DNA of 64,000 nt from Escherichia coli (GCF_003018235.1 NZ_CP027437.1); one strand, 5' to 3'. Numbered from the stretch's first letter, positions 3,450-40,861 are shown. The notes: generated by a model from the letters alone, not told the origin. Numbers and translations: made by a program.

Positions 3450-3773
3450 TTACAGCAGCACCTCCAGCCCGTGTTTTTGCACAATGCTGAGCAGTTTTAA
3501 TGAAATGCCATTGGGGCGTTTAGCGCCACTTTCCCATTTTTGTACAGTTGAAACGCTGGTATTGAGATAGTGAGCGAAGACGGGCTGACTCACTTTTAAT
3601 TTTTCCCGCAGTGCTTTTATCTCAACAGGTTGTAAGTCTTGCACGCTGGTCAGGCAGGCTTTGTCAAAAGTACGCATCGTTTCGGCAGAAATAGCATTGA
3701 CGCTGGACAATCCAGCCGCTGCGCTGTGAATAGCCTCAAATGCAGGACTTTTAAATTTAGTTTTTGCAGTCAT
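3450..3773 (-). CDS. HTH XRE-family antitoxin (putative addiction-module antidote), 107 aa
   Basis: C-terminal helix-turn-helix segment (LREKLKVSQPVFAHYLNTSVSTVQKWESGAKRPNGISLKLL); overlaps upstream toxin ORF by 17 nt. Confidence 0.6.
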   Translation of the reverse strand: MTAKTKFKSPAFEAIHSAAAGLSSVNAISAETMRTFDKACLTSVQDLQPVEIKALREKLKVSQPVFAHYLNTSVSTVQKWESGAKRPNGISLKLLSIVQKHGLEVLL

Positions 3774-4116
3774 AGCAGATCTCTGTCAGTTCTTTAGTGT
3801 TAATCATTGCTGTCAGTTGGGCTTTCGTCAGGAAGGCATAATGCTTTGCAAGTTCACGAAACCCAGCCAGTTCCTGACTATTAATGTTCGACATATCCTG
3901 TTTTGCATATAAAAACGTGTAAAACCAATTGCTTCCCCCTTTCGCCAGAATAATTGCACGCTCACGATTTTTGTGAAGGCGCTTTTTAAAAACGCCACCA
4001 CCAAGTACATCAGCTTTACCTTGTTCCGTTTCTAAAATGGCCCGGCACAACTCTTCATCTGTTATTGCATGAGACCTGGCTTCCCTTGCAAACCATTTGG
4101 TTTTAAACACGCGCAT
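3757..4116 (-). CDS. RelE/ParE-superfamily-like toxin (putative addiction-module killer), 119 aa
   Basis: Small basic protein encoded immediately upstream of and overlapping an XRE antitoxin (toxin-first order as in HigBA-type modules); family assignment from recalled motif pattern, not searched. Confidence 0.5.
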   Translation of the reverse strand: MRVFKTKWFAREARSHAITDEELCRAILETEQGKADVLGGGVFKKRLHKNRERAIILAKGGSNWFYTFLYAKQDMSNINSQELAGFRELAKHYAFLTKAQLTAMINTKELTEICYDCKN

Positions 4117-5528: not shown

Positions 5529-5729
5529 CGTATTTACAGGAGGGTTATTGCTCTGGCGGGAAAGCTCTCCTGTTCTTCCCCCTGATAACCCTTGATCAGG
5601 TATTGTTCTTATCTTGTTGTTATTTCCATTATTCCGCCTGTATTCATCATTTGCTAATCATGAATCATCATTTTCTCTCATGTTAAAGAAAGGTCATTTA
5701 ATCTGAACGCATAGCGACAGGGATGACAA

Positions 5730-7041
5730 ATGGCAGGGAAAGCGCATGGGAACGGCGATCGTCGGGGCGATAACACCATATGTGGATTGGGGGATCGTTT
5801 ACGTCGTCTGACCGCCGGTATTTGCCTGATAACACAAACTATTTTCCCTGTTATGGCTGCTGCCCCTACGCATATTAATCCTGCGCATTCGGATACTGCC
5901 GCGTCACTGATCCTGCCGAACGTTAAAACTATTCCATATACCCTGGGTGCGTTGGAATCGCCACCTACGGTCGCGGCACGCTTTGGTATCACCGTTGATG
6001 AATTACGTCGCCTGAATCAGTTCCGTACCTTTGCGCGGGGCTTTGACAATGTGCGTCAGGGCGATGAAATAGATGTGCCCCTCATTAACAGTAACAGCCC
6101 TGAAGCGCGCAACCTGAAAGCAATGCAGATGGAGCGCGATGGCAAAGATCCGCAAATGCAGGTCGCGGAAGTGGCGCAGCAAAGCGGAACACTTTTAGCG
6201 CGCGATATGGACAGCGAACAGGCTGCAAGTATGGCGCGTGGCTGGGTGGCTTCTTCTGCCTCTGCGCAGGCAACGGACTGGCTCAGTCGTTGGGGAACTG
6301 CCCGGGTATCTCTTGGTGTGGATGAAGATTTCAGCCTTAAAAGCTCGTCATTTGAATTTCTCCATCCCTGGTACGAAACGCCGGATAACCTGGTCTTCAG
6401 CCAGCACACACTTCACCGTACGGATGATCGCACTCAAACCAACCACGGTATCGGCTGGCGTTATTTCACATCGAGCTGGATGTCTGGCGTCAATATGTTT
6501 ATCGATCATGACCTGACCCGCTATCACACCCGAACCGGGATGGGCGTTGAATACTGGCGCGATTACCTGAAACTGAGTGGCAACGGTTATCTGCGCCTCA
6601 GTAACTGGCGTAGTGCACCGGAACTCGACAATGACTATGAAGCACGTCCGGCGAACGGTTGGGATCTTCGCGCCGAAGGCTGGTTACCGGCCTGGCCGCA
6701 GCTGGGCGGCAAGCTGGTCTATGAACAATATTATGGCGATGAAGTGGCGCTGTTTGGTAAAGACGGGCGACAAAATGATCCTCACGCGATTACCGCAGGT
6801 TTGAGTTACACCCCCGTTCCCCTGATCTCCTTTAGTGCCGAGCAACGGCAGGGCAAACAGGGAGAAAACGACACCCGAATTGGTATGGAGTTGACGTTGC
6901 AACCCGGCCATTCACTGCAAAAACAGCTCGATCCGGCTGAAGTTGCAGCACGACGTAGCCTTGTGGGCAGTCGCTATGACCTGGTCGATCGTAATAACAA
7001 TATTGTCCTCGAATATCGCAAGAAAGAGCTGGTGCGGCTGA
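5730..7041 (+). other. Signal peptide + LysM + inverse-autotransporter beta-barrel translocation unit of the adhesin
   Basis: Signal-like segment LTAGICLITQTIFPVMAAAP; LysM-like YTLGALESPPTVAARFGITVDELRRLNQF; barrel motifs shared with intimin. Confidence 0.7.
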
Positions 7042-9170
7042 CGCTGACCGATCCGTTGAAAGGCAAGCCGGGTGAGGTTAAATCGCTGGTTTCTTCCTTA
7101 CAAACCAAATATGCGCTGAAAGGTTATGACATTGAAGCCGCCTCCCTGCAATCAGCGGGCGGAAAAGTAGCTGTTTCCGGCAAGGATATTCAGGTCACTA
7201 TTCCTCCCTACCGATTCACGGCAATGCCTGAAACCGACAACACTTACCCGATAGCGGTTACAGCGGAAGATTCGAAAGGAAATTTCTCCCGGCGTGAAGA
7301 AAGTATGGTGGTCGTGGAAAAACCCACATTAAGCCTCGCCGATTCAACGCTTTCTGTCGATCTGCAAATCCTGCTTGCTGATGGAAAATCAACCTCAACG
7401 CTGACCTATACCGCGCGAGATTCCAGCGGCAAGCCGATCCCCGGTATGACGTTAAAAACACAGGCAAAAGGTTTGCAGGATTTCGCCTTAAGCGAATGGA
7501 AAGACAACGGTAACGGAACCTATACCCAAATAGTTACCGCCGGGAAGACGTCTGGCGCGTTATCGCTGATGCCGCAATTTAACGGCGACGATATCGCTAA
7601 GACGCCAGCGCTGATTGCTATCGTGGCGAATACAGCATCCCGCGCTGACTCCACGATTGAGACAGACCAGGATAATTACGTCGCGGGTAAGCCGATAGTC
7701 GTTAAAGTGACCCTGAGAGATGATAACGGCAACGGGGTTACCGGACGAAAAGAACTTCTCAAACAAACCGTTAAAGTTGACAACACGAAGGCTGATGCCG
7801 TTAGTGCCTGGACGGAAGAAAGTGAGGGAATTTACAAAGCAAGCTATACGGCCCATCTCATTGGCGACAAATTAACGGCCCAGCTGACGATGCCCGGCTG
7901 GCAAACCAAACATTCGGATGCGTTCAGTATTGCGGGTGATAAAGATACCGCCAAAATCGCTGCGATGCAGATCACCGCGAATAACGCAGTTGCCAGACGC
8001 GATCACAATACCGTCGCTGTGACGGTCAGGGATGTGCATCAAAATTTACTGCAGGGACAAAATGTTACCTTCACGGTCGTGAATGGTGCGGCGGTTTTTG
8101 CCGATCCAAATGGCGGTATTGTGACGACAGATAAAGACGGGATTGCCAGCGTTAACCTTGCCAGTGACCAGGCGGTAAACAGTCTTATCAAGGCCGAGAC
8201 CAATGGCAGTAGTCAGTCTGTGGAAGTGAGCTTTATTACTGGCGATATCTCTCAGCTGACTTCCACCATCAAGACAGACGATGTGTCATACACCGCGGGT
8301 GGTAAGATAAAAGTGTCAGTTACCCTTATGGATGAGCAGAAAAACCTGGTGAAAGGGATGGCTTCGCTGCTGGCGGGTAGCGGTGTGGTTGAGGTGAGCG
8401 GTACAGATAAAAATGAAACGGGTAACTGGAGCGAAGAGTCTGATGGCGTTTACACCACCACCCGAACCGCGAAGATTGCTGGCGATCGCCATTACGCCAC
8501 GCTGAAACTATCGACATGGAGTAGCGCGCAGCAATCTGATGCGTATGCCATACGCGAAAGCGGAGCTGTGCTGGCTTATTCCTCCATCGTTACCGACAAA
8601 ACGGCCTACACCGCGGGCGGCGCGATAAAAGTTACGGTAACACTCAAGGATAGCTATGAAAACCTGGTCGGGGGGCAGCGAGACGCTATCAACCAGGCTA
8701 TCCAGCTGCCAAATACAAAAGCGGAAAGCATCGCCTGGAATGAAGATCAAAAAGGAATTTATACCGCAACGTATACCGCCTTACTCCCTGGCACCGGTTT
8801 AAAAGCACAGCTACAGATGTCCGGCTGGGCGAACGCTCTGACTTCAAATGATTACAGTATTAGTGGCGATGCCGCCAGTGCACAAATTGTCGCGATGCAA
8901 GTGACAACGGGTAACCCGGATGTGCTGGCGAATGGCAGCGATCGACATACGGTGAATGTCCGGGTGGAAGATCAGTTTGGCAATGTGCTGCCGGAGCAGA
9001 CCGTCACCTTTACGGTGACGAAGGGGGCGGCTGTATTTGCCAATGCAGGGCAGAGCGCAGATATCAGGACGGATGCGCATGGCATGGCAGAGGTTGATCT
9101 GAGCAGTACCGTAGCGGATGCCAGCACTGTTGAGGCTAAGGTTAATCAAAGCAGCGATAGTAAAACGGTG

Positions 9171-12100
9171 AACTTTGTTGCTGATGTTAGCACGGCGCAG
9201 GTCGCGGAGCTGGTGGTCATTAAGGATGGTTCAGAGGCGGACGGTTCGACGGCGAACACGCTGCGGGTGAAGGTCACCGATGCGTTCGGTAATACGCTTG
9301 CCGGGCAGACGGTCAGCGTGTTGGCGGACAACAGCGCAACGACTGCCCCGACGGTAATCACAGAGCCGGACGGCACGGTGGAGATCAGTGTCACCAGCCA
9401 GACGGCGGGAGCCAGTACTGTCACTGCCAGCATCAACAGCAGCAGCCTGAGCCGGACCGTGACGTTTATCGCCGATGTCAGGACGGCGCAGATCGCGGAT
9501 CTGGTAGTCACCCGGGATAACTCAGTGGCAGACGGTGCAATGGCGAATATGCTGCGGGCGAGGGTCACCGATGCGTTCGGTAATGCGCTTGCCGGGCAGA
9601 CGGTCAGCGTGATGGCAGACAACGGTGCCACGACTGCTCCGACGGTAATCACAGAGCCGGACGGCACGGTGGAGATCAGTGTCACCAGCCAGACGGCGGG
9701 CAGCAGTGCGGTCACCGCCAGCATCAACAGCAGCAGCCAGAGCCGGAACGTGACGTTTGTCGCCGATGTCAGGACGGCGCAGATCGCGGACCTGGTGGTC
9801 ATTAAGGACGACTCAGTGGCAGACGGTGCAATGGCGAATATGCTGCGGGCGAGGGTCACCGATGCGTTCGGTAATGCGCTTGCCGGGCAGACGGTCAGCG
9901 TGTTGGCAGGCAACGGTGCCACGACTGCTCCGACGGTCACCACGCAGCCGGACGGCACGGTGGAGATCTCTGTCACCAGCCAGACGGCGGGCACCAGTGC
10001 GGTCACCGCCAGCATTAACAACAGCAGCCAGAGCCGGAACGTGACGTTTATCGCCGATGTCAGCACGGCGCAGATCGCGAGTCTGGAGGTGACGCAGGAT
10101 AACGCCGTGGCAGACGGTGCGACGGCGAACACGCTGCGGGTGAGGGTGACTGATGCATTCGGTAATGCGCTTGGCGGACAGACGGTCAGCGTGATGGCAG
10201 ACAACGGTGCAACGGTGTCTCCGACGGTCAGTACAGGGCCGGACGGCACGGTGGAAATCAGTGTCACCAGCCAGACGGCAGGCACCAGTGCGGTCACTGC
10301 CAGCATTAACAGCAGCACCCTGAGCCGGAACGTCACGTTTGTCGCGGATGTCAGGACGGCGCAGATCGCGGACCTGGTGGTCATTAAGGACGACTCAGTG
10401 GCAGACGGTGCAATGGCGAATACGTTGCGGGTGAGGGTGACCGATGCGTTCGGTAATGCGCTTGCCGGACAGACGGTCAGCGTGATGGCGGACAACGGTG
10501 CAGCGGTCGCTTCGACGGTCACCACAAAGCCGGACGGCACGGTGGAGATCAGTGTCACCAGCCAGACGGCAGGAATCAGTGTGGTCACCGCCAGCATCAA
10601 CAACAGCATCCAGAGTCAGAACGTGACGTTTGTCGCGGATGTCAGGACGGCGCAGATCGCTGATCTGGTGGTGACGCAGGACGGCTCAGTGGCAGACGGT
10701 TCGACGGCGAACATGCTGCGGGTGAGGGTGACGGATGCGTTCGGTAATGCGCTTGCCGGGCAGACGGTCAGCGTGATGGCAGGCAACGGCGCAACGGTGT
10801 CTCCGACGGTCACTACAGAGCCGGACGGCACGGTGGAGATCAGTGTCACCAGTCAGACGGCGGGCACCAGTGCCGTCACTGCAACCATCAACAGCAGCAG
10901 CCAGAGCCGGGATGTGACGTTTATCGCCGATGTCAGGACGGCGCAGATAGCGAGTCTGGAGGTGACGCAGGATAACTCAGTGGCTGACGGCGCAATGGCG
11001 AACACGCTGCGGGTGAAGGTCACCGATGCGTTCGGTAATGCGCTTGCCGGGCAGACGGTCAGCGTGACGGTAGGCAACGGCGCAACGGTCGCTCCGACTG
11101 CCATCACAGGGCCGGACGGTACGGTGGAGATCAGTGTCACCAGTCAGACGGCGGGCACCAGTGCCGTCACCGCAACCATCAACAGCAGCAGCCAGAGCCG
11201 GAACGTGACGTTTATCGCCGATGTCAGGACGGCGCAGATCGCGAGTCTGGAGGTGACGCAGGATAACGCCGTGGCAGACGGTTCGACGGCGAACACGCTG
11301 CGGGCGAGGGTCACGGATGCGTTCGGTAATACGCTTGCCGGGCAGACGGTCAGCGTGTTGGCGGACAACGGTGCCACGACTGCTCCGACGGTCACCACGC
11401 AGCCGGACGGCACGGTGGAGATCATTGTCACCAGTCAGACGGCGGGAGTCAGTTCTGTCACCGCCAGCATCAACAACAGCACCCTGAGCCGGAACGTGAC
11501 GTTTGTCGCCGATGTCAGGACGGCGAAGATAGCGGACCTGGTGGTTATTAAGGACGGCTCAGTGGCAGACGGCGCGACGGCGAATACGCTGCGGGTGAAG
11601 GTCACCGATGCTAACGGTAATACGCTTGCCGGGCAGACGGTCAGCGTGACGGCAGACAACAGTGCAATGGTCGCTCTGACGGTGATTACAGAGCCGGACG
11701 GCACAGTGGAGATCAGTGTCACCAGTCAGACGGCAGGCACCAGTACAGTCACTGCCAGCATCAACAGCAGCAGCCTGAGCCGGAACGTGACGTTTGTCGC
11801 CGATGTCAGCACGGCAAAAATAGCGGATCTGGTCGTTATCCAGGATAACTCAGTGGCTGACGGCGCAATGGCGAACACGCTGCGGATGAGGGTCACGGAT
11901 GCATTCGGTAATACGCTTGGCGGACAGACGGTCAGCGTGACGGCAGACAACAGTGCAATGGTCGCTTCGACTGTCATCACAGGGCCGGACGGTACGGTGG
12001 AGATCAGTGTCACCAGCCAGACGGCGGGGATCAGTACTGTCACTGCATCCATCAACAACAGCAGCCTGAGCCGGGACGTGACGTTTGTTGCCGATGTCAG

Positions 12101-32164: not shown

Positions 32165-33718
32165 ATGCAAATGATTACCTCGCGACAAAACAGATTATTA
32201 CGATTCCTTTTACCACGAAGGGAATATACGACTATTGTTACGATTGCCGGCTATTTAAATGTTTCGGAAAAAACCATTCAACGTGATTTACGTTTACTTG
32301 AGCAATGGCTGGAACAATGGCGAATAACCGTTGAGAAGCGTGCTGGCGCAGGTGTGATGTTAGACTCGAAGAATATTACTGATTTGCTGCATCTTGATCA
32401 TTTGTTGGGAGCAGAATGTGAAGAGATTGATGGTGTAATGAATAATGCCAGGCGCGTTAAAATAGCGTCGCAGTTATTAAGTGAAACACCGAATGAAACG
32501 TCGATCAGTAAATTGTCAGAGCGCTATTTTATCAGTGGAGCCTCTATTGTTAATGACCTGAGAGTGATTGAGTCCTGGCTTGCGCCGTTGGGGTTATCAT
32601 TGATCCGCAGCCCAAGTGGTACGCATATTGAAGGTAGTGAAGGGCAAGTCCGACAGGCAATGGCATTACTGATTAACGGCATTATTAACCATAATGAGCC
32701 GCAAGGTGTCGTGTATTCACGTCTGGATCCCGGAAGTTATAAAGCATTAGTCCATTATTTTGGAGAAGAAGAGGTGTTATTTGTCCAGTCATTGTTACTG
32801 GATATGGAAAATGAATTAAGTTGGTCTTTGGGAGAGCCTTATTACGTTAACATTTTTACTCACATCCTTATTATGATGTATCGCAACACGCACGGGAATG
32901 CGTTATCCAGAGAAGAAGATCAAACCAGGCAATATGATGAAAATATCTTTAATGTTGCCAGTCAGATGATTCATAAGATAGAACAACGAATTGCACATAC
33001 ATTGCCCGATGATGAAGTCTGGTTTATTTATCAATATATCATTTCATCAGGTGTGGCGATTGATGGACAAAAAGATGTTAGCATTATTTCACATATGCAG
33101 GCCAGCAATGAAGCGCGTCTGATTACCTGGCGTTTAATTACGGTATTCAGTGACATCGTGGACTGCGATTTTAGTGAAGACAGCGCATTATATGATGGCT
33201 TATTGGTGCATATTAAGCCGCTGATTAACCGACTAAATTATCGCATTCATATCCGTAATCCATTGCTGGAAGATATTAAAGCAGAATTAGCGGATGTCTG
33301 GCGGTTGACGCAATATGTGGTGAATCAGGTATTTAAAACCTGGGGTGAGAATGCAGTGAGCGAGGATGAAGTGGGTTACCTGACCGTTCATTTTCAGGCT
33401 GCGATGGAGCGGCAAATTGCCCGTAAACGCGTATTACTGGTCTGTTCAACCGGAATCGGAACTTCGCATCTACTGAAAAGCCGTATTCTGCGAGCGTTTC
33501 CTGAATGGACGATTGTTGATGTTATTTCAGCAGCGAATTTATCACAGGTTTTGCCTGACAATATCGAACTGATTATTTCGACCATTAATTTGCCTACAGT
33601 CACTATGCCGGTCGCTTATGTTACCGCTTTTTTTAATGATGCCGATATTAAGCGGGTCACTGAAATGGTGATTACGGAAAAATTACATCATGCGACATCT
33701 CGGGTCGTTGAAATTTAA
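32165..33718 (+). CDS. PRD-domain PTS-regulatory transcriptional activator (Mga/MtlR-like, HTH + PRDs + EIIB-like C-terminus), 517 aa; frz-operon-like regulator
   Basis: N-terminal HTH (TIAGYLNVSEKTIQRDLRLL), central PRD-like region, C-terminal EIIB-like motif LLVCSTGIGTSHLLK; first gene of a PTS operon. Confidence 0.7.
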   Translation: MQMITSRQNRLLRFLLPRREYTTIVTIAGYLNVSEKTIQRDLRLLEQWLEQWRITVEKRAGAGVMLDSKNITDLLHLDHLLGAECEEIDGVMNNARRVKIASQLLSETPNETSISKLSERYFISGASIVNDLRVIESWLAPLGLSLIRSPSGTHIEGSEGQVRQAMALLINGIINHNEPQGVVYSRLDPGSYKALVHYFGEEEVLFVQSLLLDMENELSWSLGEPYYVNIFTHILIMMYRNTHGNALSREEDQTRQYDENIFNVASQMIHKIEQRIAHTLPDDEVWFIYQYIISSGVAIDGQKDVSIISHMQASNEARLITWRLITVFSDIVDCDFSEDSALYDGLLVHIKPLINRLNYRIHIRNPLLEDIKAELADVWRLTQYVVNQVFKTWGENAVSEDEVGYLTVHFQAAMERQIARKRVLLVCSTGIGTSHLLKSRILRAFPEWTIVDVISAANLSQVLPDNIELIISTINLPTVTMPVAYVTAFFNDADIKRVTEMVITEKLHHATSRVVEI

Positions 33719-33744
33719 TGTCAGAATTTTATGAGGTATGACGA

Positions 33745-34215
33745 ATGGACATAACAAAAATCCTGAATACGAATCGCGTTATTTTAGATATGCAAGCGAC
33801 GAATAAAGCGGAGGCGATTGAAGAATTAACTAATCTTCTCAAAAAAGATGGTGCGATCGATTGTCGGGAAACCTTTATTAAAGATGTCTGGCAGCGCGAA
33901 GCGGAAGGCTCGACTGGTTTTGAAAATCATATTGCGATCCCGCATGGTAAATCTTCTGCGGTAATTAATACCACGCTGGCGATCGGGCGAACCCGGCAGG
34001 ATATTCCCTGGGAAACGCTGGATGGCAGTAGCGTGCGCTGTATTATTTTATTTGCGGTACGTCTTGAAGATCAAAATACCACCCATATCCGTTTACTTTC
34101 CCAGGTCGCGGGTGCGCTGGCGGATGATGACATCATAGAACAATTGCTGGTTGAGACGAGTCCGCAAAAAATCATTGATCTCTTTAGTCAGTATGCACAA
34201 TCCGATGTCTGCTAA
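33745..34215 (+). CDS. PTS EIIA component, fructose/mannitol (type 2) family, 156 aa
   Basis: Phosphorylation-site motif HIAIPHGK; size and profile of PTS_EIIA_2. Confidence 0.8.
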   Translation: MDITKILNTNRVILDMQATNKAEAIEELTNLLKKDGAIDCRETFIKDVWQREAEGSTGFENHIAIPHGKSSAVINTTLAIGRTRQDIPWETLDGSSVRCIILFAVRLEDQNTTHIRLLSQVAGALADDDIIEQLLVETSPQKIIDLFSQYAQSDVC

Positions 34216-34232
34216 ATAACAGGGAGTATGTC

Positions 34233-34547
34233 ATGAATATTGTCTGTGTTGCCGCCTGCACGGCGGGTATTGCTCACACCTATATTGCTCGTGAAAAGTT
34301 AATTAAAGGGGCAAAAGCACTGGGCCACACCATTAAAGTTGAAACCCAGGGAACCATTGGTACAGAAAACGAATTACAGGCGGCAGAGATCTCTGCTGCT
34401 GACGTCGTGATTCTTGCTGTGGATGTGAAAATAAAAGGAGAAGAACGTTTTACCAATAAACGCATTGTGCGAGTAAAGACAGAGATCGTCATTAAATCGC
34501 CCGTTCAATTTCTTGAAAAGGTCGAAAAATCACTGGGAAATAAATGA
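34233..34547 (+). CDS. PTS EIIB component, fructose-like (type 2) family, 104 aa
   Basis: N-terminal active-site Cys motif VCVAACTAGIAHTYIA; SD-like ggag upstream. Confidence 0.8.
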   Translation: MNIVCVAACTAGIAHTYIAREKLIKGAKALGHTIKVETQGTIGTENELQAAEISAADVVILAVDVKIKGEERFTNKRIVRVKTEIVIKSPVQFLEKVEKSLGNK

Positions 34548-34571
34548 TCCTTATACTGGAGGGATCTTAAT

Positions 34572-35663
34572 ATGAAAGAAAATAAAATTCCGGTTTCACA
34601 GGAAATTAAAAAACATTTATTAACCGGCATCTCGTGGATGATACCCCTTATTGTGGCCGCCGGGATATGTATTGCGTTGGGGCAAGTTCTTGGCGGTACA
34701 GATGTTGGTGAAAAAACAGGAACAATCCCGTGGATGCTTAATCAGATTGGCGGCTGGGGAATGGGGCTGATTGTGCCGCTGATTAGCGCGGCAATTGCCT
34801 ATTCTATTGCTGATCGTCCCGGTTTTGCCCCGGGCCTGATTGTCGGCTTTCTCTGTGGGCAAATCCATACCGGATTTATTGGCGGTATGTTGGGTGGTTT
34901 CCTGGTGGGCTACACCATTTTGCTACTTAAACGCTATATCCGCCTGCCGCAGTCGATGCAAGGACTCATGCCAATCATGGTGTTACCGGTATTGAGCACC
35001 ATTATCGGTGGGCTGTTAATGATGACGCTGATTGGTAAACCCATCGCCTGGTTACAAGAAGCACTGACTCATTTGCTCGAGTCGATGCAGGGCGGATCGC
35101 GCTTCCTGATGGGGGCCATACTTGGCGCGATGGCAACCTTCGATTTCGGTGGTCCGGTCAACAAAACCATGTCGCTGTTTTCCGATGGCTTGCTGGTCAG
35201 TGGCGTCTACGGACCAGAAGCCGTGAAATTTGTCGGCTCAATCATCCCTCCGTTTGGCATCACACTTTCGTTCTTACTGACACGCCATAAATACACCCGT
35301 GCGGAGCGCGAGGCGCTGAAAGCCGCGTTTCCGATGGGGATCTGCATGATCACTGAAGGAGTCATTCCGATCGCCGCGCGTGACCTGCTGCGAGTAGTGG
35401 GATCTTGTGTGGTGGCATCGGCGGTCGCGGGCGGCTTAATCATGGTGTGGGGCGTGGAGAGTCCGGTTCCGCATGGCGGCATGTTTGTTGTGCCTCTGTT
35501 CACCCATCCTCTGCTGTTTTGCCTGGCGCTGGGTATAGGCACGGTGATTTGTGGCGTGATGCTTTCACTCTGGAAGAAACCGGTAACGGAACGCGACGAA
35601 GAGTTTGACGAACTGAGCGATCAAAAGCTGAAAGATGAAGAGATCACTTTCACCCTCGAATAA
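34572..35663 (+). CDS. PTS EIIC permease, fructose-like family, 363 aa
   Basis: Polytopic membrane protein following EIIA/EIIB genes; FrwC-like profile. Confidence 0.8.
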   Translation: MKENKIPVSQEIKKHLLTGISWMIPLIVAAGICIALGQVLGGTDVGEKTGTIPWMLNQIGGWGMGLIVPLISAAIAYSIADRPGFAPGLIVGFLCGQIHTGFIGGMLGGFLVGYTILLLKRYIRLPQSMQGLMPIMVLPVLSTIIGGLLMMTLIGKPIAWLQEALTHLLESMQGGSRFLMGAILGAMATFDFGGPVNKTMSLFSDGLLVSGVYGPEAVKFVGSIIPPFGITLSFLLTRHKYTRAEREALKAAFPMGICMITEGVIPIAARDLLRVVGSCVVASAVAGGLIMVWGVESPVPHGGMFVVPLFTHPLLFCLALGIGTVICGVMLSLWKKPVTERDEEFDELSDQKLKDEEITFTLE

Positions 35664-35674
35664 CCGGAGGCCCT

Positions 35675-36526
35675 ATGTTTGCCGATATGAAAAGTATGGT
35701 GATGAAAGCCTGGCATGAACATTACGCCTTGCTGGCGATCAACTGTATGAATCTGGAAAGTGCTCACGCAGCTATCCGCGTGGCGGAGAAGAATCGCGCT
35801 CCGATCATTCTCAATCTCTATCAGGGGCATCTGGCGCATTTTCCTGCACCCGTCGCGGCGGCAGTGGTTAAAACGCTCGCGGAATCTGCCTCAGTACCGG
35901 TCGCTCTGGCGCTTGATCATGGCAAAAATCCGGACTGTATTCGTCAGGCGTTTCGTGCTGGTTTCAGCGGATTAATGATTGATGCTTCTGCTTTTCCCCT
36001 GGAGGAAAACGTGCGCCAGACCAGGGCGGTGGTGGAACTCGCCGCCAGCGCGCAGCTCTGCGTGGAAGGCGAACTGGGCCATCTGGCAGATGCGCCGCGT
36101 TACGACCAGGCCGCCAATGCAGACCTGATGACGCAACCCACTGATGTGGAACCGTTTATCGCGCAGACAGGCATTGATCTACTGGCCGTCTCGGTAGGCA
36201 CGGCGCACGGCATGTACGCGCCTGGTGTTGTACCTGCTATTGATTTTCAGCGTCTGGCGGAGATTTTCCACTGCTCGAGCGTGCCTCTGGCATTACATGG
36301 CGGTAGCGGTACGCCGTTCGATCAGCTCCAGCTCTGTACGACGCTGGGGGTAGCAAAAATCAACGTGGGGGCGGCCATTTTTGAACGGGGGAAATCCGCG
36401 CTCCTGCATACCCTCTGTCACGATATATCCATTGAACTGGTGGACGCGCTGAAAGCTATGGAACTGGCCTTCGAAGAAGCGATTACACCGTATTTACAGG
36501 CGAGCGGCTCTATAGGCAAAGCCTGA
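35675..36526 (+). CDS. Class II ketose-bisphosphate aldolase paralogue 1 (FBA/TBA family), 283 aa
   Basis: Motifs ALDHG, VGTAHGMY, ALHGGSG corresponding to the class II aldolase metal-binding histidines; strong SD ggagg 4 nt upstream. Confidence 0.75.
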   Translation: MFADMKSMVMKAWHEHYALLAINCMNLESAHAAIRVAEKNRAPIILNLYQGHLAHFPAPVAAAVVKTLAESASVPVALALDHGKNPDCIRQAFRAGFSGLMIDASAFPLEENVRQTRAVVELAASAQLCVEGELGHLADAPRYDQAANADLMTQPTDVEPFIAQTGIDLLAVSVGTAHGMYAPGVVPAIDFQRLAEIFHCSSVPLALHGGSGTPFDQLQLCTTLGVAKINVGAAIFERGKSALLHTLCHDISIELVDALKAMELAFEEAITPYLQASGSIGKA

Positions 36527-36606
36527 TTCATTTTCTGTCATGGCCTTTATGCCAGTGCAATAACGCACCGGCAGGGCGGACTACACGCTGAAACTGGAGA
36601 TTTAAC

Positions 36607-37467
36607 ATGTTAGTTTCGATGAAAGAATTACTGCAACCTACCCGCCAGCACGGCTTTGCCATTGGCGCATTTAATGTGGCGGATAACTGTTTCCTTCGCG
36701 CAGTCGTGGATGAAGCAGAAGCGACAAATACTCCGGCGATTATTGCCATCCATCCCAGCGAACATGATTTTGTGGGCGATGCCTTTTTCGCTCACGTTCG
36801 CGAAATTACCCAGCGTAGTCCGGTCCCGTTTGTACTGCACCTCGATCATGGTGCCTCTGTAGAGCATGTTTTGCGTGCGATTCGCTGCGGATTTACCTCA
36901 GTAATGATCGACGGTTCGCTGCTGCCGTATGAAGAAAACGTGGCGCTGACCGCAGAAGTGGTTCGCCTCGCTCACGCGGTTGGAGTGTCGGTTGAGGGTG
37001 AACTGGGAACCATCGGACAAACAGGAACGTCGGTAGAAGGTGGTGTTTCACAAGTGACCTACACAGATCCGGCGCAGGCCGCCGATTTTATTGCTCGTAC
37101 AGGTGCCGACACTCTGGCTGTGGCGATTGGTACAGCGCATGGCATCTATCCAAAAGGGATGCAGCCGAAGCTGCAAATGGACATTTTGCGCGACATTGCC
37201 GGACGTATTGATATTCCGCTGGTGCTACACGGTGGTTCGGCAAACCCGGACGCGGAGATTGCTGAATCAGTTACGCTCGGCGTCGGCAAAATCAATATCT
37301 CCAGCGATATGAAATACGCCTATTTCCAGAAAGTGCGTGAAATTCTCGCTAAAGAGAGCTGGTGGGACCCGAACGTCATCTATCCGGATGCGATTAACGC
37401 GGCGCGGGAAGTCATTCGCCACAAAATGAAACTGTTCGGTTCGCTCGGTAAAGCATCACTGTACTAA
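36607..37467 (+). CDS. Class II ketose-bisphosphate aldolase paralogue 2 (FBA/TBA family), 286 aa
   Basis: Canonical HLDHG, IGTAHGIY, VLHGGS motifs; resembles GatY/KbaY-type aldolases. Confidence 0.8.
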   Translation: MLVSMKELLQPTRQHGFAIGAFNVADNCFLRAVVDEAEATNTPAIIAIHPSEHDFVGDAFFAHVREITQRSPVPFVLHLDHGASVEHVLRAIRCGFTSVMIDGSLLPYEENVALTAEVVRLAHAVGVSVEGELGTIGQTGTSVEGGVSQVTYTDPAQAADFIARTGADTLAVAIGTAHGIYPKGMQPKLQMDILRDIAGRIDIPLVLHGGSANPDAEIAESVTLGVGKINISSDMKYAYFQKVREILAKESWWDPNVIYPDAINAAREVIRHKMKLFGSLGKASLY

Positions 37468-37475
37468 GCCAGAAG

Positions 37476-37495
37476 GGCGGGGTGACCCGCCTTTT
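37476..37495 (+). terminator. Intra-operon hairpin + short U-tract between aldolase 2 and kinase (candidate attenuator/partial terminator)
   Basis: GGCGGG-gtga-CCCGCC followed by tttta, in the 47-nt gap before the kinase ATG. Confidence 0.4.
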
Positions 37496-37514
37496 ACGCA
37501 ACAAGGAACGAGAT

Positions 37515-38447
37515 ATGCACTATCTGGGGTTGGATATTGGTGGGACCAAAATCGCCGCCGTCGTCATGGATGCGCATGGCTGGGAGATTCGCCGTTACCG
37601 CTGCCCGACGCAAAAGTCGACATATCAACAATTTGTCTCATGCGTTGTGGCGTTTATCGAGCAGATTAGGCGGGACGTTCAACGACCGATGCTGACAGGG
37701 ATCGCCTTACCCGGCAGTATCTCGCCACTCACTGGCCTGATTAAAAACGCGAATATTCAGGTGATTAACGGTCATGCGTTACAGGCTGATTTGCAGCAAT
37801 TGCTTGGGCAACCGGTGGTGATAGCCAATGATGGTAACTGTTTCGCGCTATCAGAAGCTTGCGACGGTGCCGGGCAAGATTATGACGTGGTATTTGGTAT
37901 TACGCTTGGTACGGGCTGCGGCGGTGGCATTGCCATCAAGCAACGACCGTTTATAGGGGCCTGGGGAAATGCTGCCGAATGCGGTCATATCACGTTGCCA
38001 AGCTATACGGAGCAGGAAGATGGTCCATCAGTCAGTTGCTATTGCGGCAAACACAACTGCGTGGAGTCGTTTGTTTCCGGCAGCGGTTTTAGTGAACGCT
38101 ATCAACAGATGACTGCTAACTTGCTCACTCCTGCGGCGATTGTCACCCTGGCACAACGTGGTGATGCTTGTGCCATGCAGCAGGTGGCACGTTTTCGCCA
38201 ACAGCTTGCCCGCACGCTGGCAACCATCGTTAACGTTGTTGACCCTGGCGTGATTGTGATTGGCGGCGGGCTTTCGAATGTGGAACTGCTTATCACCGAT
38301 CTGAACGCAGAAGTCGCTCCACTGGTTTTCACCGACCAATTCACCACCCCCATTGTAAAAGCGCAGCACGGCGACAGTAGCGGAATGCGTGGCGCTGCCT
38401 GGCTTGCTATGCGCAACGGAGAAGCCAATGAAACGTTCACAAATTAA
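37515..38447 (+). CDS. ROK-family sugar kinase (NagK-like), 310 aa
   Basis: N-terminal ATP-binding motif LGLDIGGTKIA and ROK zinc motif CGHITLP...CYCGKHNC; start chosen at ATG 37515 (the ORF-track start 37482 is a GTG inside the hairpin). Confidence 0.75.
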   Translation: MHYLGLDIGGTKIAAVVMDAHGWEIRRYRCPTQKSTYQQFVSCVVAFIEQIRRDVQRPMLTGIALPGSISPLTGLIKNANIQVINGHALQADLQQLLGQPVVIANDGNCFALSEACDGAGQDYDVVFGITLGTGCGGGIAIKQRPFIGAWGNAAECGHITLPSYTEQEDGPSVSCYCGKHNCVESFVSGSGFSERYQQMTANLLTPAAIVTLAQRGDACAMQQVARFRQQLARTLATIVNVVDPGVIVIGGGLSNVELLITDLNAEVAPLVFTDQFTTPIVKAQHGDSSGMRGAAWLAMRNGEANETFTN

Positions 38448-39108
38448 TTATGTTATTGATAAAGCACATGCCATTGCGCAGACCTTCCGCGTTTGTTTGC
38501 CAGAGTTCGCCTATTTTACGGTGGATGACTGGCTGCAGCGGGAACGGGATAACTGGCAAGAAGTGGTCGACTTACAGCTCGGTTGGGATATCACCGATTT
38601 TGGTCGTGGTGATTTCAACCAAACGGGACTAACACTGCTAACGATGCGCAACGGCGCGCTGGGGGCGGCGGCATATCCAAAACCGTATGCTGAGAAAATG
38701 TTGCAGATCCAACAAGATCAGCAGACTCCCTGGCATTTTCACACCCACAAAATGGAAGATATCCTCAATCGGGGCGGTGGAGACTTATGCATGCAGTTGG
38801 CCTGGGCCAACGAAGCCAATCTCTGTGATGATCAACGAGTCATTACCGTGAGTGTTGATGGTCAGCGGCGTACCATGAAACCTGGTGAAACGCTGGTGCT
38901 AAAGCCGGGGCAGGGCATTTGCCTGCCGCCGCGTCTGTATCATCGCTTCTGGGCGGAAAAAGCGTTTGTTCTCGGCTGGGAAATTTCGATGGTAAATGAT
39001 GACCAACACGATAACTATTTTCTTGAGCCGGGAGGACGTTTTCCGGCGATAGAAGAAGATGAACCGGTGAAATGGTTATTGTGCAGTGAGTATGGAATTT
39101 TGCGCTAA
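38428..39108 (+). CDS. Cupin-superfamily sugar isomerase (D-lyxose/D-mannose isomerase-like), 226 aa
   Basis: Start MKRSQINYV overlapping kinase 3' end by 20 nt; cupin-like motif region TPWHFHTHKMEDILNRGGG; family call from recalled similarity, not searched. Confidence 0.6.
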   Translation: MKRSQINYVIDKAHAIAQTFRVCLPEFAYFTVDDWLQRERDNWQEVVDLQLGWDITDFGRGDFNQTGLTLLTMRNGALGAAAYPKPYAEKMLQIQQDQQTPWHFHTHKMEDILNRGGGDLCMQLAWANEANLCDDQRVITVSVDGQRRTMKPGETLVLKPGQGICLPPRLYHRFWAEKAFVLGWEISMVNDDQHDNYFLEPGGRFPAIEEDEPVKWLLCSEYGILR

Positions 39109-39114
39109 TAACGG

Positions 39115-39153
39115 GGAACGCTAGCGCTGATATCCGCTAGCGTCCTTATTTTT
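39115..39153. terminator. Bidirectional terminator between frz-like operon and yicH
   Basis: Stem ggaacgctagcg / cgctagcgtcc with 8-nt loop followed by ttattttta. Confidence 0.65.
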
Positions 39154-40861
39154 ACTGCACCGGCTCCGTCGACGTAACTTCACCACTGGAAACTACGCCC
39201 GCATTCATGGTTTGAGTCACTTGCTGCTTTGCGGCATTCACGGCATGCAATTGCCCGCTAACCGTAGGTTTCAGCGGGACATTGGCCTGAATATCGCCAC
39301 TGGCAGTAAGCTGAATATTGCCGTCGCCAGTCAACGGTAATTCAGGCCATCCCCACTGTTGCAAAATATTCACCGGCACACCGCGTCCATTCAGGCTGAT
39401 ATGGGTCTGACGTTGTGGCGTTTGTGAAACACTGGCGGTGGCTTCCAGAATGCCTTTTTCAGTAAATGCACTCAGTTCGCTGATATTCACCGTGCTGCTG
39501 TTGGCGGTCAGCGCCAGCGATGGGCGACGAACATCAACACGATTGAATGTCGCGGCGGCGGCATTCAGATTCGCCGAACCACTCCAGACGCCCCATTTAT
39601 GATCGGTAACCAGCGTCAGGTTGGTACCGTAACCATCGAGCGCGGTGAGCTGCCACGGGAAGTCAGGGTCGATATCAATGATCAGATTGCGGCTGGCGCT
39701 AAATCTCTTCAGTTGCAGGCTGTTTAACCAACCGGGTGTCGTTTCCATCCACAACTGTTGCCAGTTTTTTGGCAAGGTATATTCCAGTCCGGCAATTGCC
39801 GCATCATCAAGGAGCAACGTTTTCCCGTTGCGCAGCCAGTTCCCGGACGTTCTGACCATGCCCCCTTCCCAGCGGCTGGTGAACTGGCGCAGCGCTACGC
39901 CCTGCGGGGAAAATTCCGCGTTTATAATCGGGTCAAATAAATGCAGCGAACCATAAATGAACTCGCTGGCGTTCATCGACAGTTTGCCTTCCTGTGTCTG
40001 CCAGTCATCTTTACTGAAGGTCATGTTGCGCAAGCTGAGATCGAGGTCGGTCACCGCCCAGTCCGGACCTTGCAGGCGAGCGTCGATGACTTCCAGGCGA
40101 CCGATCTGCAACGACGGGACAGAGCGTAATGGCGCAAAGAAGTCAGTTAGCGATTTTTCGCTTTGTAGACGGATATCCGCCAGCCGCAGATTTTCCACTT
40201 GCCAGCTGCCGTCGGCGTTACGCTGCGCGTTTCCGGTTAATGTCCCGCGGGCGATGTCGGCACCCAGGTTAGTCAGCGTAACGCGATCGTTATCAATACT
40301 GCCTTCAATCAGTACATTGGTGGCAGGAACATCATTGAGAGAAAGCGATCCGGCACTAAACTGAATCTGCGCCTTCGTACCCAGCACTTTACCGGCTTCT
40401 GGTGACCACGGAACCACGCCACCATTTACCCGCTGCGCGCTCAGTTTCCATTCGCTATTCGGGCTATTAAACGCCATATCACGCAGTTGCAGACGATCGG
40501 CTTTGAACGGTAGCGGCGCGGTCTGGTCGGTGAGATTCAGCGTCCCGTTTTCCAGCAGGATGGTATCGACATGGCGTGGTTCGGTCAGTTGCCGACTGCT
40601 TAGCGCAATGTCGACACTTTTTGCCACCAGGGTCGCGGGCTGGCCATCACGGCCGAACGTGACGTTCTCCAGCACGATATGAGATGGCGCGGAAAAACGG
40701 TGATCCATCGCCCCGAAGGCCAGATGATAGTCGCTATTCTCGGAAACCCATGCGCTGATATGTTCTGCTCCCCAGCGGGTTTGCAGAAGAAAATAGAGGC
40801 CAGCGATCACCACTAACAGAGCGATGAAAATGTAGAGAAGCAGCTTCCCAATAAATTTCAT
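39152..40861 (-). CDS. yicH: AsmA-family outer-membrane assembly protein, 569 aa
   Basis: Conserved start MKFIGKLLLYIFIALLVVIAG within ORF 39152-40885. Confidence 0.85.
   Translation of the reverse strand: MKFIGKLLLYIFIALLVVIAGLYFLLQTRWGAEHISAWVSENSDYHLAFGAMDHRFSAPSHIVLENVTFGRDGQPATLVAKSVDIALSSRQLTEPRHVDTILLENGTLNLTDQTAPLPFKADRLQLRDMAFNSPNSEWKLSAQRVNGGVVPWSPEAGKVLGTKAQIQFSAGSLSLNDVPATNVLIEGSIDNDRVTLTNLGADIARGTLTGNAQRNADGSWQVENLRLADIRLQSEKSLTDFFAPLRSVPSLQIGRLEVIDARLQGPDWAVTDLDLSLRNMTFSKDDWQTQEGKLSMNASEFIYGSLHLFDPIINAEFSPQGVALRQFTSRWEGGMVRTSGNWLRNGKTLLLDDAAIAGLEYTLPKNWQQLWMETTPGWLNSLQLKRFSASRNLIIDIDPDFPWQLTALDGYGTNLTLVTDHKWGVWSGSANLNAAAATFNRVDVRRPSLALTANSSTVNISELSAFTEKGILEATASVSQTPQRQTHISLNGRGVPVNILQQWGWPELPLTGDGNIQLTASGDIQANVPLKPTVSGQLHAVNAAKQQVTQTMNAGVVSSGEVTSTEPVQ

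Follow-up and report, generated by a model that had tools for sequence, protein, structure and literature searches.

The frz operon between yicI and yicH of Escherichia coli: a putative six-gene core for ketose use at an apparently old locus

What does an eight-gene operon do between yicI and yicH of Escherichia coli, two genes that are neighbours in K-12, and how did it come to be there? The question is raised by a 64,000-nucleotide stretch of an E. coli genome (GCF_003018235.1, NZ_CP027437.1; hereafter the window), in which positions 32165-39108 hold eight open reading frames on the same strand, separated by gaps of 26, 17, 24, 11, 80, and 47 nt and ending with an overlap of 20 nt. The original prediction, made from the sequence alone, had likened these genes to the frz operon known from extraintestinal pathogenic E. 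coli (ExPEC), had described them as an insertion, and had considered their enzyme mix odd and their substrate not deducible. The locus is the frz operon of avian and human ExPEC. Its finding here is a rediscovery of a locus described in 2009, and as such it is already known; the age of its linkage to yicI, its six-gene core, its conserved operator and promoter, and its relatives in Vibrio may go beyond the literature. With moderate confidence, we read frz as a conserved activator-dependent operon at an old locus, in which a fructose-like ketose would be cleaved by aldolases by way of its 1-phosphate and a second phosphorylation, and in which a side branch would be formed by the ROK kinase together with the cupin isomerase. 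That the eight genes form a single transcription unit is part of this explanation, and we hold it no more firmly than the whole.

The identification follows from primers, site, size, and gene order. The diagnostic primers published for frz give a product of 843 bp (PMC6238794). Both match the window without a single mismatch, frz-FP at 32570-32589 (+) and frz-RP at 33393-33412 (-), and they span 843 bp inside the first gene. In an analysis of the BEN2908 genome published in 2026 (PMC12928451), region GR27, which measures 7227 bp and has yicH and yicI as its borders, is listed as the operon frz that Rouquet et al. described in 2009 (J. Bacteriol. 191:4427). The DNA that the window holds in excess of K-12 BW25113 amounts to about 7.23 kb and runs from just past the yicI hairpin to the stop codon of yicH at 39152. 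The first description of frz, in the avian ExPEC strain BEN2908, reportedly listed a content of eight genes. The marker of avian pathogenic E. coli known as 'frz orf4' is annotated as a fructose IIC subunit of a phosphotransferase system (PTS), and the fourth gene is an EIIC here too. Because the primers are exact, the amplicon has the expected 843 bp, the site and size are those of GR27, and gene 4 agrees with 'frz orf4', the resemblance to frz proposed in the original prediction proved to be an identity.

The surroundings and the distribution of the locus are also clear. On the left, yicJ is followed by yicI (29552-31870, +; NF007940 at 1428 bits), and on the right stands the AsmA-family gene yicH (39152-40861, -), followed by xanP (-). 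In BW25113 the spacer between yicI and yicH is 52 bp and holds no operon, in agreement with the original prediction, which had the two genes adjacent in K-12. Counting as present any genome in which at least 80% of the block is covered, we found it in 1602 of the 5426 complete E. coli genomes; it is missing from, e.g., BW25113 and O157:H7 EDL933. Of the frz-positive genomes that were sampled, that of the bovine strain C4 has the closest copy (99.6%), and the identity to the rest is 98.2-98.9%. Strain Nissle 1917 has all eight frz genes, intact. NCBIfam and Pfam models bore out the predicted content, i.e., a PRD-containing activator, the PTS proteins EIIA, EIIB, and EIIC, a pair of class II aldolases, a kinase of the ROK family, and an isomerase of the cupin type.

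The second to fourth genes (on the + strand, like the rest of the operon) encode a fructose-family PTS: EIIA (33745-34215; IPHG motif with His67; TIGR00848, 127 bits against a cut-off of 103.5), EIIB (34233-34547; Cys9 in AACTAGIAHT; TIGR00829, 99.4 against 76.85), and EIIC (34572-35663; TIGR01427, 315 against 157.6). All three exceed the fructose-subfamily cut-offs, and the histidine and cysteine of the phosphorylation sites are present. Fructose itself is unsupported as the substrate, the EIIC lying far under the equivalog cut-off of its nearest named model, FruA (300 bits versus 793).

Two paralogous class II aldolases follow. The second of them (gene 6, 36607-37467, 286 aa) is a ketose-bisphosphate aldolase by NF006042 (526 bits against 405) and belongs to the family by both PF01116 and TIGR00167 (259.5 against 215.6). 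The first (gene 5, 35675-36526, 283 aa) falls under every NCBIfam and equivalog cut-off (TIGR00167, 197 against 215.6), with its zinc and catalytic motifs intact. The two proteins are 33% identical, and both keep the DH (Asp-His), EGELG, GTAHG, and LHGGS motifs with the zinc ligands and catalytic residues. The idea that aldolase 1 is a GatZ-like pseudo-enzyme thus finds no support in its sequence, where every zinc and catalytic motif is kept; a heteromer of the two paralogues is possible. Compared with the equivalogs of the tagatose-bisphosphate aldolases GatY/KbaY, the Frz aldolases score 181-251 for cut-offs of 383-542, and the operon has no GatZ-type gene. The structure of YdjI (PDB 6ofu), an enzyme that cleaves a ketose monophosphate, is among the aldolase matches. 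The 80-nt spacer between the two genes (36527-36606) keeps its length in other genera and contains a small hairpin that was flagged as terminator-like.

The last two genes encode enzymes of a different kind. Gene 7 (37515-38447) specifies a ROK-family protein of 310 aa with a DIGGT ATP motif and a CxCGxxxC zinc motif, whose nearest relatives are the fructokinase Mak (316 bits against an equivalog cut-off of 443) and NagK; it has no HTH domain and is therefore a sugar kinase, not a repressor. Gene 8 (38428-39108) specifies a cupin of 226 aa from the D-lyxose/D-mannose isomerase family (PF07385), in which the HxH...E...H metal ligands are conserved. It scores 272 bits against the equivalog cut-off of 350 for NF051472 and matches, over its whole length and with E = 1e-64, the solved structures 3kmh/3mpb, which we take to be those of Z5688 of E. 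coli O157:H7. The starts of both genes were set by RefSeq in near-identical genomes (37515, not 37482, for the kinase and 38428, not 38389, for the cupin), the original prediction having used upstream GTG codons. All eight genes are intact, with no sign of decay. A GC-rich hairpin with a run of T at 39118-39143 (+), between the convergent cupin and yicH genes, is the likely terminator of the operon.

Comparison with other genera separates the genes that are always there from those that are not. We searched species-representative genomes with a degenerate pattern made of a palindrome and a -35 block that lie upstream of the first gene, and then tabulated the loci by tblastn. The operator/-35 pattern returned 38 loci, nearly all of them of the frz type. 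The same eight genes stand between yicI and yicH in Citrobacter and in Klebsiella aerogenes, and many Enterobacterales have cupin homologues that are 70-82% identical. The regulator, EIIA, EIIB, and EIIC, and both aldolases were found in all enterobacterial loci that extend far enough to include them. The ROK gene is missing in C. youngae, C. gillenii, C. portucalensis, Superficieibacter, and others (loci L021, L027, L029, L030, L037, and L050), where aldolase 2 is separated from the cupin by about 53 bp. It is missing in Izhakiella too (L014), where the gap is 528 bp. Both ROK and cupin are missing in Pantoea wallisii and [Erwinia] mediterraneensis (L036 and L038), which have unrelated genes downstream. 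Since the operon has some orthologues that lack ROK and others that lack ROK and cupin alike, these two genes are accessory, and the invariant core consists of six genes: the regulator, the PTS, and the two aldolases. The most fitting reading of the ROK/cupin pair is that of an accessory branch acting on a free sugar, through which the molecules imported by the PTS need not all pass. Hence, the enzyme mix that had been called odd is real in this copy, and the puzzle is largely resolved: the two enzymes are not invariant, so they are not an obligatory step of the core pathway. In K. aerogenes (L005/L006, 10747-14910), genes for an RpiR-type regulator, a GH4 glycosidase, and an alpha-glucoside-type PTS EIICB lie between frz and yicH.

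The same comparison bears on the age of the locus. The order yicJ-yicI-frz is shared by many Citrobacter species and by K. aerogenes, K. michiganensis, K. grimontii, Superficieibacter, Phytobacter, Mangrovibacter, and the cryptic Escherichia sp. MOD1-EC7003. The Frz proteins are 76-96% identical to those of Citrobacter and 65-94% to those of K. aerogenes; the flanking YicI, YicH, XanP, and GltS are 82-96% and 71-93% identical, respectively. The absence of frz from K-12 looks like a loss because the yicI-adjacent site is shared by at least six genera and the divergence is in the range of core genes. Hence, frz looks old at the yicI side in Enterobacteriaceae and lost in K-12-like lineages, not recently inserted in ExPEC. 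The claim that the operon was inserted between yicI and yicH is thus right as to the location and probably wrong as to the direction of the change. An old locus with losses changes the reading of the association with virulence, which may largely reflect phylogroup history. A functional tie between frz and the alpha-xylosidase operon yicJI, suggested by their being neighbours in many genera, was considered and rejected: frz lies elsewhere in Raoultella, Izhakiella, Pantoea, and Kosakonia, and no operator palindrome is found upstream of yicJ.

What route would these proteins catalyse? In the core, a fructose-like ketose would enter through the PTS as ketose-1-phosphate, the usual product of fructose-family PTSs. 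The second phosphate would come from the operon's own ROK kinase where there is one; where there is none, a housekeeping kinase (e.g., FruK or PfkA) would supply it, and the aldolase pair would split the bisphosphate into triose phosphates. In the side branch, the cupin would start from the matching free aldose, with the configuration of mannose, lyxose, or talose, and isomerise it to a ketose; phosphorylated by the Mak-like ROK kinase, that ketose would feed the same route. ROK and cupin fit best in such a branch because they are dispensable in natural variants and because their nearest characterised relatives use free mannose, fructose, and lyxose. Two published cases bear on the core. E. 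coli has been evolved to use D-tagatose via FruA, FruK, and aldolases of the KbaY/GatY type (PMC10101011), and PfkA fills the missing kinase step of the tag cluster of Nissle 1917 (PMC9720028). Both are experimental precedents for the joint use of a fructose PTS, a housekeeping kinase, and a class II aldolase on a rare ketohexose, and they support the proposed core route.

Several points weigh against this reading, in its chemistry, its history, and its physiology. Phosphorylation at C1 by the PTS, the action of ROK on a ketose-1-phosphate, and the need of the aldolases for a bisphosphate are all steps that we infer. The ROK kinases characterised to date act on free sugars. Aldolase 1 is under all cut-offs and YdjI is among the aldolase matches, and a route through monophosphates is therefore open. 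As for the history, a Salmonella enterica contig (L013, 3726-11124) carries the full eight-gene module upstream of yicJ, between transposase and integrase fragments by tRNA-Sec, i.e., in a selC island, and the frz genes of Raoultella and Izhakiella stand in unrelated genomic contexts. Horizontal transfer of frz has clearly happened, and synteny alone is no proof of vertical descent. Inside the operon, the genes from the regulator to EIIB (32165-34547) have a GC content of 41-45% (38-44% at third codon positions, GC3) and those from EIIC to the cupin (34572-39108) one of 50-56%, a step that suggests a mosaic origin. Finally, the frz phenotypes described in papers that cite the original work (in LB, in serum, in cell adhesion, and in the fim switch) arose without any special sugar being added.

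The main rival to the bisphosphate route keeps all the enzymes in one line: the ketose-1-phosphate would be cleaved to dihydroxyacetone phosphate (DHAP) and a free aldose, which the cupin would isomerise to a ketose for the ROK kinase to phosphorylate. This has the merit of using isomerase and kinase on free sugars, as is usual for their families, and YdjI, a monophosphate-cleaving enzyme, is among the aldolase matches. It also gains from a cupin 60-62% identical to that of Frz, encoded in a different seven-gene cluster of Salmonella (L007, 7598-14541) and Yokenella (L010, 7622-14434). That cluster further encodes an MFS sugar transporter, a mutarotase, a class II aldolase, a PfkB kinase, a zinc alcohol dehydrogenase, and a DeoR regulator, and an integrase gene adjoins it in Salmonella. 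From its layout, it looks like an uncharacterised free-aldose pathway that would lead from aldose to ketose, to ketose-1-phosphate, and then to DHAP plus an aldehyde. For frz, however, the operons that lack ROK, or both ROK and cupin, keep both aldolases, and the steps downstream of cleavage are therefore not obligatory. Moreover, a hexulose would give glyceraldehyde, which neither lyxose/mannose-type isomerases nor ROK kinases are known to accept, and a product such as lyxose or mannose would demand a ketose of eight or nine carbons. We consider the single-line monophosphate scheme unlikely, though worth keeping in view.

Doubtful to a like degree is the view that frz is a recent horizontal insertion specific to ExPEC lineages and that the adjacency of yicI and yicH in K-12 is ancestral. 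It would account for the patchy presence of the block in E. coli (1602 of 5426) and for the low GC in the 5' third of the operon, and the module is mobile elsewhere, as its places in the Salmonella selC island and in Raoultella and Izhakiella indicate. The junctions of the block in the window tell otherwise, having no direct repeats, no insertion sequence elements, and no integrase genes. The yicI-adjacent position is the same across other genera, and the divergence of the Frz proteins is within the range of the neighbouring core genes, both of which go against a recent arrival and leave an old locus with losses as the preferred history.

A third alternative concerns what the operon is for. 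In avian and human ExPEC, of which frz is a marker, papers that cite the original work credit it with a part in adhesion via type 1 fimbriae and in surviving in serum and the gut; it is also reported to promote fitness under stress (serum, late stationary phase) and to favour the fim switch in its ON orientation. These effects could be those of a mainly sensory or regulatory system, in which the catabolic genes are cryptic or marginal and the phenotypes come from the PRD regulator and from cross-talk in PTS phosphorylation, not from a gain of carbon. In these papers, the phenotypes, the shift of the fim switch included, appear without a defined Frz sugar, and the literature that we searched since the 2009 description yielded no Frz substrate. 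Yet all eight genes have their catalytic motifs intact, here and in Nissle 1917, and the enzyme genes have been kept in many genera at a core-like divergence, which argues for selection on catalysis. A mainly sensory or regulatory role therefore seems to us quite unlikely. The abstract of the original frz study is said to have ascribed the phenotypes to both the activator and the enzymes.

If frz is a catabolic operon, as we favour, the next question is its sugar. The original prediction held the substrate not to be deducible, and indeed the literature searched names none. D-tagatose was considered because the aldolases resemble GatY/KbaY and because lyxose isomerases convert talose to tagatose, a known activity of these enzymes. 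In Nissle 1917, once a separate tag cluster of the ABC type is deleted, D-tagatose is neither consumed nor used for growth, under aerobic and anaerobic conditions alike (PMC9720028). Nissle 1917 has an intact frz operon, which might simply not be induced there. D-tagatose is thus unlikely as the Frz substrate.

The other candidate is D-psicose (D-allulose). As a specific proposal, namely that frz is an uptake and cleavage route for this rare ketose, with two divergent aldolases that would have an unusual specificity, for a psicose-type bisphosphate or for a ketose-1-phosphate, it is improbable as it stands. Nissle 1917 uses 12 Biolog carbon sources that K-12 does not, D-psicose included, and the authors of that work tied D-psicose to no gene cluster. 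In Raoultella, frz adjoins a cluster that encodes AlsE, AlsK, and an ABC transporter. Loci with a Frz-type regulator and promoter in two Vibrio genomes (Vibrio salinus and Vibrio sp. MEBiC08052; L023, 1612-8443, and L048) include a PTS linked to AlsE. [quoted passage not shown] D-psicose is a weak lead and the sole candidate with any support here; each of the hints has other explanations. If it were true, this sugar, which is sold as a sweetener, would link the diet to the fitness of ExPEC in the gut and outside it. Overall, the comparison across genera narrows the substrate question, with a core of regulator, PTS, and aldolases, an optional kinase and isomerase, and D-tagatose unlikely. The question becomes somewhat easier to test, and the kind of system remains as it was.

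How would such an operon be switched on? Its first gene (32165-33718) encodes a PRD-containing activator of 517 aa, recognised by Pfam and NCBIfam. The protein has two N-terminal HTH/Mga domains, PRDs at 209-294 and 324-413, both with histidines, and an EIIB-like domain at 422-498 with a P-loop cysteine, Cys427; the Pfam search found in it neither an EIIA-like domain nor a CAT RNA-binding domain. RefSeq names it 'BglG family transcription antiterminator'. Antiterminators of the BglG/LicT type have an N-terminal CAT domain followed by two PRDs, in about 280 aa. We rejected this assignment, given the 517 aa with HTH_11 and Mga and no CAT domain, and given that the LicT and GlcT models match the PRD part only, far under their cut-offs. 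By analogy with MtlR, LicR, and ManR, the idle Frz PTS would probably phosphorylate the cysteine of the EIIB-like domain and so turn the regulator off, and HPr would probably act via a PRD, when preferred sugars are absent, to turn it on.

The DNA upstream of this gene is consistent with such an activator. The extra DNA begins just beyond the terminator hairpin of yicI (CCGGATACG...CGTATCCGG, 31885-31915, +), which has a homologue in the empty site of K-12. Then come, all on the + strand, a putative CRP site, TGCGA-N6-TCACG, at 31960-31975, within a block that is invariant in six genera; an invariant block ATGTGATCTG at 31992-32001, possibly a second CRP half-site; the palindrome TGTCC-N7-GGACA at 32044-32060, a candidate binding site of the activator, with arms that are invariant and a spacer that varies (N7/8) across genera; and a putative activator-dependent sigma-70 promoter at 32071-32098, with a -35 hexamer TTGTTG (32071-32076), a 16-nt spacer, and a -10 hexamer TATATT (32093-32098), both hexamers being invariant in the six genera. 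In the alignment, these upstream blocks and the ribosome-binding site are invariant in the six genera regardless of genomic context, and the -35/-10 spacing is 16-17 nt. A simple promoter scan gave the TTGTTG/TATATT promoter no score. The palindrome has no second copy in the window. Together, these elements may constitute an activator-dependent promoter with a weak -35 hexamer, its operator just upstream, and a CRP input farther upstream. The conserved promoter and operator could be used as a reporter in screens for inducers. That TGTCC...GGACA is instead an RNA hairpin attenuator worked by a BglG-type antiterminator is highly improbable. A terminator scan does flag 32044-32060 followed by GATTTTAG, and the RefSeq product name would suit it, but the regulator lacks a CAT domain and carries the DNA-binding domains HTH_11 and Mga, the arms are invariant without compensatory changes, the T-run is weak, and the invariant -35 and -10 hexamers are found downstream of the palindrome. 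The Rfam search found no RNA family within the frz region.

Other features of the window stand apart from frz. The tRNA-Sec gene selC (27773-27867, -; Rfam) lies directly upstream of yicJ. Beside it the GC content is low (36% at 27000-27499), and a rhuM pseudogene fragment is annotated there in a near-identical genome; this stretch may be the scar of a selC island. Farther left, an island between nepI and yicS (approximately 5700-23300) carries genes for an inverse autotransporter adhesin (iatC, 10.5 kb), for EilA, a regulator of the HilA family, and for type III translocator proteins resembling IpaD/SipD and YopB/SseC with a chaperone of the SycD type. Only 68 of the 5426 complete E. coli genomes have this island in full length, with a best identity of only 96.5%. 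Between yicN and nepI, at about 3450-4110 (-; approximate coordinates, from the annotation of strain 746), are genes for a RelE/ParE-family toxin and an HTH antitoxin. Near the right end, Rfam identifies a JUMPstart element at 63789-63827 (+; 55 bits against a gathering score of 35), which presumably heads an operon for a polysaccharide or the lipopolysaccharide core.

How does frz compare with known systems? The copy in the window and that of BEN2908 are alike in site, size, primers, orf4, and absence from K-12, with no difference of substance. The Frz regulator shares with activators of the MtlR/LicR/ManR/Mga type the N-terminal HTH/Mga pair, the two PRDs, and an EIIB-like domain with a cysteine. 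MtlR, LicR, and ManR carry a C-terminal EIIA-like domain, whereas the Frz regulator is without it, occurs in a Gram-negative host, and is encoded by the first gene of its own operon. The Frz cupin has the family (PF07385) and the metal ligands of the D-lyxose isomerase 3kmh/3mpb in common with it; the identity is about 50% and the score below the equivalog cut-off, and the substrate preference is therefore not transferable. The Vibrio loci differ from frz in their EIIC, which is only 38% identical, and in having AlsE and Tal downstream instead of aldolases, ROK, or cupin; this regulator/PTS/AlsE/Tal system appears to be uncharacterised. The closest parallel in logic to the route proposed for the frz core is found in the PTS-dependent pathway by which Klebsiella oxytoca and Salmonella use D-tagatose (TagTH, TagK, GatYZ) and in the fructose system FruBKA, with a fructose-family PTS, a second phosphorylation, and a class II aldolase. 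Unlike the Tag and Fru systems, frz lacks both a 1-phosphate kinase of the PfkB type and a partner of the GatZ type; in their place it has the ROK kinase, the cupin, and a second paralogue from PF01116.

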